From Micavibrio sp. TMED2 (GTDB lineage: Bacteria; Pseudomonadota; Alphaproteobacteria; TMED2), in assembly GCA_002168225.1 (NCBI GenBank), contig NHBH01000001.1, positions 93,955 through 157,954 of the forward strand: a stretch of DNA of 64,000 nt, read 5' to 3'. This document shows, one piece after another, positions 20,205 through 22,629 of this stretch. The number at the start of each line of letters is the position of its first letter. Position 1 is the first letter of the stretch. Below the pieces are notes generated by a model. It was not told where the DNA came from. It did no database searches and worked only from the letters and a program-made list of their open reading frames with translations. The position numbers were made by a program, and so were the translations under genes.

Positions 20205-20240
20205 ATTGGGGGGAGCTATATATTTAACTAGCCTTCCCAA

Positions 20241-20564
20241 TCAGTCGGTGGGCTTTTTCTCAAGGCAGTGCTTGTAAGAAATATCTACTTTGCTCTCGTC
20301 GGTACGAACCACCCAAAAACATCTAGTGGAAAACGGAGGGGCATCATCCGGCGGTGTATTGACTTCAAAACCCGCAATGCCGCTACCCACCTTCTCTACC
20401 CTCTCATCATGTCGATCAAGAAGTGCGGTCAGGTCTGCCGCATCGGCTTGGTTTACTCGCTCCCCAATTTCGTATCGGTTTAGCATTGCTTTGAAGAAGG
20501 CTGTTGCATCACCAGCCTTGTCAAAAGTTCGAGTTCTTAAGGCTATCTTCCTCGCTTTTGCCAT
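20241..20564 (-). CDS. DCL (DUF3223) family protein, IS passenger
   Basis: LNRYEIGERV...LLDRH...EKVGSGIAGFEV...RCFWVVRTDESKVDISYKHCL matches the DCL pattern. Confidence 0.82.
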   Translation of the reverse strand: MAKARKIALRTRTFDKAGDATAFFKAMLNRYEIGERVNQADAADLTALLDRHDERVEKVGSGIAGFEVNTPPDDAPPFSTRCFWVVRTDESKVDISYKHCLEKKPTD

Positions 20565-20574
20565 AACGTGCCAC

Positions 20575-21612
20575 CTATTGCTCGATTAGTTTTGGAGAAA
20601 GTCTCTTGATAGCTAGCTGAGATACTGAGGGTGGGATTTCCTTTTTCCCCTTGAGATAGTTCTTAAACTTGCCGCCATCCAAGTAGACATCTTGAAGCCA
20701 ACGACGATACTCCCCCAGTGCATCAAGAGGATAGCAGTTGGCGATCTGGGGATTTGACTTGGCTTGCGGGTGATCTTTTGGGTAGCGATGCGGGAATTTT
20801 TCACGATCCCCAAAGCGGCTTTCGAGATCGTTTGCATCCCAATACTTTGCCCAATGCTGGCCAATGGAAATATCAGGAACCATCTTTTCCCCGATTTCAG
20901 CGCCAGCCATGATCAACTCATAAATCACAGTATGAGCCTCATTAAAGATGCTGAAATACCCACTCGGGGCGCTTTGATGGTTTAATTCGATGCGTTCATG
21001 CCATTTGCGAAGTGGCTCAGCTATGCCGCCAGTTGGGTCATATCCCACCTGACTGTAAATCATTTCTTTTAGCTTAGACCCGGCAAGTAGGCGAAAGTTC
21101 TTTCTGGCTTCCGGGCGGACATTGGAGCCTGCATCCAGTGCATAGTACTCCAGAACTGCCAAACAGATTTCTGCCGGGTAACAGAAGTGAACAACGCCCT
21201 TGTGTGGCACTTCGATATGGGGCTGCGCAAAATCCGCACCAGCTTCTAAAAGAATGCCCTTGATCGTAGAAATTCTGGGTTTTTGAACAGACTCTTTCCA
21301 CTGGCTGCTGATAGTGCCGATATGGGCGTTTTGAACACCGCACAAGGCCGCAAGTCCACGCTGGTTTAGGTATGGAGTGCCATCAGACAGGACACCCATG
21401 CCGATGCCCTCTATGTCGCGCTCTATGTCTATTCCAAGGTCAAAAGTGCCTTGATCAGAGGTGATTTTCTTCCTACGCCTAACAGGCGCTAATTTGTTGA
21501 TTTTTCTATCCATCGAGGTGATTTCCTTCCCGTAAACTCGTGGCGAAATTGCGCCCACTACCTCGTCAAAAGTCGCGTCGATAGGATCAATCTTGTCTTT
21601 TTTGTCAGCCAT
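20575..21612 (-). CDS. bstA: BstA-like phage-defence (abortive infection) protein, IS passenger
   Basis: Colinear blocks shared with BstA as I recall it: GMGVLSDGTPYLNQRGLAALCGV, YPAEICLAVLEYYALDA, ARKNFRLLA, PSGYFSIFNE, VPDISIGQHW, YP...PQ...YPLDALGEYRRWL. Alternative start at ATG 21513. Confidence 0.82.
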   Translation of the reverse strand: MADKKDKIDPIDATFDEVVGAISPRVYGKEITSMDRKINKLAPVRRRKKITSDQGTFDLGIDIERDIEGIGMGVLSDGTPYLNQRGLAALCGVQNAHIGTISSQWKESVQKPRISTIKGILLEAGADFAQPHIEVPHKGVVHFCYPAEICLAVLEYYALDAGSNVRPEARKNFRLLAGSKLKEMIYSQVGYDPTGGIAEPLRKWHERIELNHQSAPSGYFSIFNEAHTVIYELIMAGAEIGEKMVPDISIGQHWAKYWDANDLESRFGDREKFPHRYPKDHPQAKSNPQIANCYPLDALGEYRRWLQDVYLDGGKFKNYLKGKKEIPPSVSQLAIKRLSPKLIEQ

Positions 21613-22537
21613 TGATCAGCCCTTTGTAGGTCAGTCGCTTATCGGCCATGCGGTCGATTGTCATTTCAATGAAGTCCATGGTGCCAATCTGAGCCGTGTT
21701 GTGACGGAATCAGAACTCCCTCACATAGCGGTGCAGATGCTCGGCGCTCATGTAGTGATAGATACCGATGTAACCGCGCTTGAGCAGGGACCAGAAGCTT
21801 TCAATGCCGTTGGTATGCGCCATATCGCGAACGTATTCGCCAGAAGAGTGATTGATGGTGATGTGATTGTAGCCTGCGCTTGACAGGCCAATACAGCCGC
21901 CGTGCGTGTCTGTGACTATGGTTGCCCCTGTCTTGCAGTGATCTTTCACAAAGTCGGTAAGTGTCTTTGCCTTCGTGTTTTCAACCACAACGGCGCGCAC
22001 TTCACCATGCTGGTCACGAACGCCCACAACCGCAGTTTTACCAACGGTGCCGCGACCAGCGCGGAGTTTTTTGCTGGCGTGTTTATTGCGCTCTTTGCCG
22101 CCGATGTATGTTTCGTCAATCTGCACCTGACCATCCGTGTGGTCGTCGCGGTCTTTCAGCCATGTCTCGCGGATACGCTGAGCGAGAAACCATGCGGTTT
22201 TCTGAGTTACGCCAAGTTCGCGCGCCATCTGGGTGTTAGGGATGCCCTTACGGGCACTGGTGAGCATGAAAATGGCCAGAAGCCACTTTTGCAAGGGAAG
22301 TCGGCTCTCGGCCAGCACAGTACCTGTACGTACGCTTAAATGCTTGCGGCAATCTTTGCAGCGGTAAGGCATAGGTTTGTGGTCTTTGCACTCAACCACG
22401 TTGACAGACCCGCAATGCCCGCAAATAGCTTCGCCGTTCCAGCGTTTTGCCTCAAAGAACTTGCGCGCAGCTTCTTCGTCAGGGAATTTGGCGAAGAACT
22501 CAAATGTCGAAAGTGTCTCTGGCTTGTTTTTGCACAT
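21605..22537 (-). pseudogene. IS1595-family DDE transposase with premature stop
   Basis: Zn finger CGHC/CKDC, HTH, and catalytic QIDETYIGG, TD and NGIESFW motifs. TGA at 21710-21712 interrupts REF*FRHN, and the frame continues 34 codons (..KRLTYKGLING) to a second stop at 21605-21607. Confidence 0.9.
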
Positions 22538-22565
22538 GGGCTTTGCTCCTTACAAAACTCTTGTA

Positions 22566-22609
22566 ACTTAACTAGCCAAAGTTCGCAAGCTATTTTTGGC
22601 TAGTTAAGT
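22566..22609. repeat. Perfect 15-bp inverted repeat at the IS end upstream of the transposase
   Basis: ACTTAACTAGCCAAA (22566-22580) / TTTGGCTAGTTAAGT (22595-22609), 14-nt spacer; an internal inverted copy of the terminal IR. Confidence 0.9.
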
Positions 22610-22629
22610 ATATAGACCCTTTTTTTGGC

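Follow-up and report, generated by a model that had tools for sequence, protein, structure and literature searches.

The bstA homologue described here raises the question of why two near-identical 16-nt sequences should recur, a short distance apart, close to its 5′ end, and whether they constitute a nucleic acid site in their own right. The gene lies in a 64,000-nt stretch of DNA from the alphaproteobacterium Micavibrio sp. TMED2, which is the whole of the DNA analysed and is referred to below as the window. To our knowledge, the sole element of the aba type to have been mapped is that of the Salmonella prophage BTP1. This 63-bp element consists of the 29 bp upstream of bstA and the first 34 bp of the gene, and is bounded by terminal CCCGCC direct repeats, a single-base change in either of which abolishes function (Owen et al. 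2021, Cell Host Microbe, PMC8585504). It acts as DNA, depends on being present in high copy number, and has its own BstA as cognate partner, with a single chromosomal copy giving no suppression of BstA (Owen et al., PMC8585504). In the searchable literature, no later study of the mechanism of aba was found.

The two repeats, GAGGTGATTTTCTTCC at 21458–21473 and GAGGTGATTTCCTTCC at 21515–21530 (plus-strand letters), are identical at 15 of 16 positions, confirming the one-mismatch direct repeat of the preliminary description. Their start-to-start spacing is 57 bp, equivalent to 19 codons, and the two are in frame. With up to one mismatch allowed, a search of the 3.35-Mb genome found the 16-mer at this locus only, and a regulon of copies of the word was rejected, as elsewhere in the genome there are only chance matches with two mismatches. 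The window holds four direct repeats of 16 nt with at most one mismatch and a spacing of 16–100, against 0.07 per dinucleotide shuffle, and the repeat alone is therefore unusual and not decisive; it is the comparative data that are decisive. The three other such repeats are found at window positions 866, 50087 and 53690, with spacings of 69, 24 and 54, respectively.

The gene is read from the minus strand. Copy 1, the 5′ copy within the gene (21515..21530), reads GGAAGGAAATCACCTC on the coding strand and spans codons G28-K29-E30-I31-T32-S33; it is composed of the family core AAGGAAATC at 21520–21528 and a co-varying triplet, ACC, at 21517–21519. Copy 2 (21458..21473, minus strand) reads GGAAGAAAATCACCTC, and spans codons R47-K48-K49-I50-T51-S52. 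Nucleotides conserved between the copies fall within 21488..21501 on the same strand, as ATCA at 21498–21501 and TTAGC at 21488–21492. From repeat to repeat, the entire candidate aba-type element occupies 73 bp (21458..21530, minus strand).

The gene itself (20575..21612, minus strand) encodes a 345-residue, long-form BstA homologue with an N-terminal extension, recognised by PADLOC as BstA (E=5.4e-111). The match, to PDLC02356, aligns residues 51–337 with profile positions 3–286 of 292, and is thus a full-length BstA match, as is found for BstA-BTP1 as well as for BstA-Kp and BstA-Ec, with which the protein shares the same two-domain layout. Its identity to BstA-BTP1 is 43% across 280 residues, PF26567 is listed for its homologues, and 100% identical proteins are present in other assemblies. 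It is distinct from BstA-BTP1, -Kp and -Ec in having ~50 extra N-terminal residues and in being alphaproteobacterial, and its gene is distinct from theirs in being followed by a DUF3223 gene and preceded by a transposase gene with which it overlaps translationally. No Pfam match to a KilA-N-like N-terminal domain was found in the window protein, and a Foldseek search of the PDB with the N-terminal domain gave nothing significant, the best hit being DdrC (E=0.05). In the AlphaFold2 model, residues 61–190 form a confident N-terminal domain, and residues 23–57 have pLDDT <50 and are without secondary structure. The peptides encoded by the repeats, G-K-E-I-T-S (28–33) by copy 1 and R-K-K-I-T-S (47–52) by copy 2, are both in this predicted linker.

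Where the gene starts determines how the element is placed, and here the preliminary description, in which the repeats flanked a BstA start codon at 21513, was right in part. A CAT triplet does lie between the copies on the plus strand (21511–21513), and the corresponding minus-strand ATG sits 10 nt past the AAGGA of copy 1, but it is codon 34 (Met34), and is retained in the closest relatives only, not being conserved across long-form loci. Among long-form relatives, codons 2–27 have pairwise identities of 0.61, 0.73 and 0.34 at codon positions 1, 2 and 3, the last being on par with the gene-wide value of 0.36, which is a coding signature. Since codons 2–27 evolve as coding sequence, the start is at 21612 and both repeats are intragenic. 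The element lies 82–154 nt inside the window ORF, and does not straddle the long-form start codon. Gene callers have picked a short form (311–312 aa) for several homologues.

When the 5′ regions of BstA homologues were aligned, the repeat was found to be conserved at the DNA level in ~50 related genes. The loci sampled were 80 genomic and 80 from viral contigs (IMG/VR), designated below by L numbers. In the ~50 loci, almost all of them alphaproteobacterial and 52–93% identical to the window protein, the two copies of the twin motif are invariably 19 codons apart. When 46 homologous loci were aligned by codon, a single codon accounted for at least 95% of sequences in only six columns gene-wide, and these are the K, E and I codons of each copy: AAG in 32/33, GAA in 43/43 and ATC in 35/35 for copy 1, and AAG in 38/39, GAA in 43/43 and ATC in 37/37 for copy 2. 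The codon usage of the same genes predicts 19–24 per column, and 24 for the GAA seen in every case at both sites. Third-position pairwise identity is 0.94–1.0 in the K-E-I codons of both copies, compared with 0.36 gene-wide. Constraint extends between the copies, where Ile38 is ATC in 42/45, TTA encodes Leu41 in 32/41 against an expected 5.4, and AAA is used for one Lys in 29/29; immediately past copy 2 synonymous sites are free to vary. In 878 kb, the two sites account for ~75 occurrences of the word AAGGAAMTC, and a further 17 lie elsewhere.

The element is also found where one or both copies are not read in the frame of the protein. BTP1-like loci, and some of the short-form ones, have copy 1 outside the ORF; in short-form relatives, including those on IMG/VR viral contigs, which carry the twin motif too, the element spans the start codon and covers the RBS. 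In L043 both repeat words are retained, one base out of frame with the conserved core, implying a frameshift between copy 2 and that core, and so either a pseudogene or an assembly error. The L043 words lie ~64–121 nt upstream of the GIGMGVL codons. Because third positions in the K-E-I codons are so much more constrained than those of the gene as a whole, the alignment indicates that the element is under nucleotide-level selection and excludes purely peptide-level selection, DNA and RNA being inseparable by sequence. Further candidates were rejected. RNAalifold on 15 diverse copies gave 0 pairs and Rfam gave no match, speaking against an RNA structure; a consensus scan for an internal or antisense promoter gave no promoter-like site; and a small antisense hairpin at 21476–21488 is not conserved in relatives.

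The window sequence is itself a departure from this pattern at one position. Its copy 2 core reads AAGAAAATC, with an A at 21468 in place of G (GAA to AAA, Glu to Lys), where G is present in 43/43 aligned loci encoding Glu at that column. The nearest relative, L001 (93% identical), has the consensus copy 2, AAG GAA ATC ACC TCT. By analogy with the BTP1 point mutants, this G-to-A change may weaken the window's site.

The two copies do not vary independently. Parallel changes in both are seen in L026 (GAA to GGA twice) and L028 (AAG to GAG twice), the close relatives of which keep the consensus, and in a CTC subclade both copies have changed together. Agreement between copies within a locus exceeds that of permuted pairings at positions 6 (A or C) and 9–11 only, from which the unit is taken to be 12 nt, a 9-nt core plus the co-varying triplet. 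The type of word follows clades on the maximum-likelihood tree, and comparison by domain shows which part of the protein it accompanies. N-terminal domains are 47–56% identical to that of the window in CTC-type loci, and 68–93% in ATC-type loci. In six of nine CTC-type loci (L005, L042, L047, L049, L067 and L074), the C-terminal domain is 74–88% identical to the window's and the N-terminal domain 48–55%, the reverse of most other relatives, with most ATC-type loci reaching only 57–70% in the C-terminal domain. This mosaic of BstA domains implies recombination at the domain boundary. As judged from these alignments, word type is a feature that follows the N-terminal, putatively DNA-binding domain and not the C-terminal domain, with the caveat that word and N-terminal domain are adjacent, so that their co-inheritance could be physical linkage. 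The 9-nt core is constant in a clade whose N-terminal domains are only 68–93% identical, a wider range than ‘one allele, one aba’ would lead one to expect.

The same geometry, with other words, is found in other BstA clades. When exact direct repeats were searched for in the 5′ region of each non-redundant locus, the best fell at a spacing of 56–57 and in the same zone, where copy 1 has a position of −122 to −100 nt relative to the GIGMGVL motif, which is conserved. Outside the AAGGAA clade, seven exact repeats of at least 8 nt have a spacing of 57, against a mean of 0.10 for each other spacing between 30 and 90. The word is AAGGAAATC in the main alpha clade and AAGGAACTCG in a subclade; in single loci it is AAGGGAATCGG (L026), CGCGATCACCCC (L064), TCCGATCG (L076), AAGCCCGCCGCCCC (L103) or AGGGTGCCATG (L104), in L073 and L111 it is CCGCGCAC or CGCGCACC, and in L107–L109 it is CCCGCCA or CCCACCAC. 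All BTP1-like loci carry CCCGCCA at a spacing of 56. The L064 locus (L064:2125-4755) belongs to the same IS lineage as the window locus, with a transposase 73% identical and a homologous N-terminal extension, and its BstA is merely 43% identical; its twin word differs from that of the window, yet is in the same place and at the same spacing.

That an aba-like cis element might lie at the 5′ end of this bstA had been proposed in the preliminary description, and this stands as regards position, spacing and the invariance of synonymous sites. Like the BTP1 aba, the window element is at the 5′ end of bstA and has two direct repeats, 57 bp apart in the window and 56 bp apart in BTP1, with total lengths of 73 and 63 bp. 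In a protein alignment, BTP1 Met1 falls opposite window Pro43, and R6-S-I-S-P-R-Q12 opposite K48-K-I-T-S-D-Q54, so that the BTP1 aba (−29 to +34) projects onto window residues ~33–54; the twin-repeat element spans residues 28–52, and thus overlaps it. The two elements therefore occupy the same segment of the aligned gene and protein, and in both the interior is constrained as well as the ends and the repeat words vary with the BstA variant. What does not carry over is the relation to the start codon: the window element is inside the ORF, with both copies translated by virtue of the N-terminal extension, whereas the BTP1 aba straddles the start. The words also differ, AAGGAAATC(ACC) in the window as against CCCGCC in BTP1, those of the alpha clade lying ~13 nt further 5′, and the window element has the copy 2 core substitution and an IS1595 transposon as host where BTP1 aba is on a prophage. 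Deep nucleotide homology between the two was considered, since AAGGAAA(A)TCA and ATCACCCC are shared; this is suggestive and is not relied on, because frame and spacing shift, and the similarity is likely a Shine-Dalgarno coincidence.

The transposon, an IS1595-family element carrying tnp, bstA and a DUF3223 gene, extends over 20210..22620 (minus strand). Its inverted repeat (IR) core, CTATATACTTAACTAGCC at 22598–22615, matches a partner at 20216–20233 at 17/18 positions, and the flanking 8-mers, CCAAAAAA and CCAATAAA, match at 7/8. Target duplications (TSD) are perfect in relatives, with GAGTTTAT beside a 27-bp IR in L049 and TTAATTTT (8 bp) beside a 25-bp IR in L064. The transposase ORF (21710..22537, minus strand) matches PF12762 DDE_Tnp_IS1595 (E=1.6e-38) and the Zn ribbon PF12760 (E=2e-8), and is truncated by an in-frame TGA at 21710–21712 (REF*FRHN...), beyond which the frame runs 34 more codons to a TGA at 21605–21607, overlapping the bstA start region (ATGGCTGA). 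The DUF3223 gene (20241..20564, minus strand; PADLOC HamC-like, E=5e-37) lies 10 bp downstream of bstA; a DUF3223 gene follows bstA in L010, L016, L050 and L055 too, though not in most loci. Some 22 loci share the tnp-bstA arrangement, and transposase identity among them goes down to 39%. An origin of the repeat as an IS end or transposase site was rejected, the word being unrelated to the IR CTATATACTTAACTAGCC and present in loci without the IS. Upstream of where the transposase starts, part of the left IR pairs with an internal copy of itself, inverted and 14 nt distant, to give a perfect 15-bp hairpin (22566–22609).

In its DDE_Tnp_IS1595 and Zn ribbon domains, terminal IRs and 8-bp target duplications, the unit resembles the IS1595-family elements with passenger genes known as transporter IS, from which it differs in that its cargo is an anti-phage gene accompanied by a candidate immunity site of that gene's own; no description of an anti-phage bstA as IS1595 cargo was found in the searchable literature. 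The IS1595-bstA unit is single copy in this genome, and is located between an lrp-type gene and the terminator of a transporter operon, not on an inducible prophage. The suggestion, made earlier, that an aba had been retained from a prophage donor is thus not borne out, since the locus is IS1595-family transposon cargo and the element is under purifying selection there. It follows, too, that the published rationale for aba, the sparing of a phage's own lytic replication, is not directly applicable to a transposon-borne locus, and the element is still conserved in such loci.

Taken together with the BTP1 precedent, the repeats are probably a clade-specific, aba-type bipartite DNA site that is read by the gene's own BstA, and the counterpart of the BTP1 aba. 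On this reading the two repeats would be the ends of a bipartite cis element acting at the nucleotide level in the 5′ coding region of bstA, with the unit AAGGAA(A/C)TC plus three co-varying bases occurring twice, 57 bp apart, and ATCA and TTAGC between. BstA is proposed as the reader by elimination and analogy, and is the most economical candidate, as no other component is shared by the loci on IS elements, prophages and plasmids. Amplified on replicating DNA, the element would neutralise the cognate BstA, as for the BTP1 aba; in the window there is one chromosomal copy, located within a transposon, and so the defence should not be switched off. It would also travel with bstA, giving any recipient replicon immunity to this BstA variant. 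Counting against an aba-type site are the departure of the window's copy 2 core from the otherwise invariant sequence, and the ~13-nt offset of the alpha words from the position of CCCGCC in BTP1, as well as the breadth of the clade sharing one core, the possible linkage of word and N-terminal domain, the transposon setting, and the Shine-Dalgarno character of AAGGA.

Other explanations of the same sequences have to be weighed against this. Selection could act on the peptide, with K-E-I-T as a short linear motif present twice in a disordered N-terminal linker (for example, as two docking sites), and the DNA repeat would then be a by-product. A KEIT...KEIT consensus with a fixed 19-residue spacing is indeed conserved, in a region for which disorder is predicted, a frequent setting for linear motifs, and the two peptide copies co-vary (KELD/KELD, KGIG/KGIG). 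Selection on the peptide does not, however, explain the absence of synonymous variation (GAA in 86/86, ATC in 72/72, and CTC never CTG), and copy 1 is untranslated in BTP1-type and some short-form loci, with L043 keeping the DNA words out of frame, making this very improbable. Translation signals are a somewhat less remote option, the AAGGA of copy 1 acting as the ribosome-binding sequence of an internal start that yields a short isoform, and that of copy 2 as a pause or enhancer, so that the feature would operate at the RNA level. AAGGA is the Shine-Dalgarno core, an ATG is found 7–10 nt past copy 1 in the window and in many other loci (L001, L002, L005, L023 and others), and the short-form gene calls noted above would fit such an isoform. 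Against this, the long-form loci L004, L006, L007, L009, L010, L013 and L078 have no internal Met and keep both cores, copy 2 is not followed by a start codon, and the words of other clades (CCGCGCAC, CGCGATCACCCC, TCCGATCG) are not Shine-Dalgarno-like and are nevertheless in the same places at the same spacing. As the constraint also reaches the ATC/CTC part and the co-varying triplet, a role confined to translation is improbable. A chance repeat, or the decaying and functionless remnant of an old 19-codon duplication, is scarcely credible: in 64 kb, one 16-bp pair differing at a single base is no more than modestly improbable, and the window has four, but ~50 loci, with protein identities as low as 52%, share this pair at the same site, its third positions do not vary, its spacing is fixed and its copies have changed in parallel.

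The remaining alternative accepts that BstA binds the site, and differs as to the output, which would be autoregulation, through an operator or roadblock within the gene, in place of self-immunity. It would account for conservation of the element in single-copy, transposon-borne chromosomal loci that have no lytic replication to protect; as a lone chromosomal aba does not suppress BstA (PMC8585504), a function in cis would explain its retention there, and the RBS and start codon fall within the element in short-form loci. In long-form loci, by contrast, the site is 80–150 nt inside the ORF; the likely promoter should precede tnp, which puts the site ~1 kb downstream of it; there is no promoter-like site nearby, and in BTP1 BstA is constitutively expressed from the repressor operon (PMC8585504). 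Autoregulation is regarded as a live, if unlikely, alternative output of the site.

If the repeats are an aba-type site for their own BstA, a further step can be envisaged, one that is possible and on balance doubtful: that the IS1595-bstA unit is a self-contained, portable ‘defence plus immunity’ cassette, its immunity site being written into the ORF, with a 12-nt specificity code read by a swappable N-terminal domain. The code would consist of the clade core and the co-varying triplet. The chromosomal copy would abort phages, and a phage or plasmid gaining the transposon would acquire the matching site, and so replicate in cells with that BstA variant; were this true, a defence gene would exert selection in favour of its own transposon spreading onto replicons.

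In the large alphaproteobacterial clade to which this locus belongs, conservation at synonymous sites directly reveals the candidate element, and the 56–57 bp twin-repeat geometry holds across BstA clades, also outside prophages, on a transposon with passenger genes. Aba-type sites thereby become predictable for hundreds of unannotated BstA genes, and the question is raised of what role a self-immunity site has on a non-replicating element. For binding and swap experiments, the material would be a defined 12-nt half-site, a fixed 57-bp spacing, and the natural ATC, CTC, GGA and GAG forms.

Directly past copy 2 (21430–21453, residues 54–61), a short peptide, Q-G-x-[LF]-[DQ]-L, is conserved, reading QGNLQLF in BTP1 and QGTFDLGI in the window clade. 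This motif presumably resembles beta-clamp-binding peptides, and a beta-clamp-like peptide would be of interest in a protein that blocks phage DNA replication.
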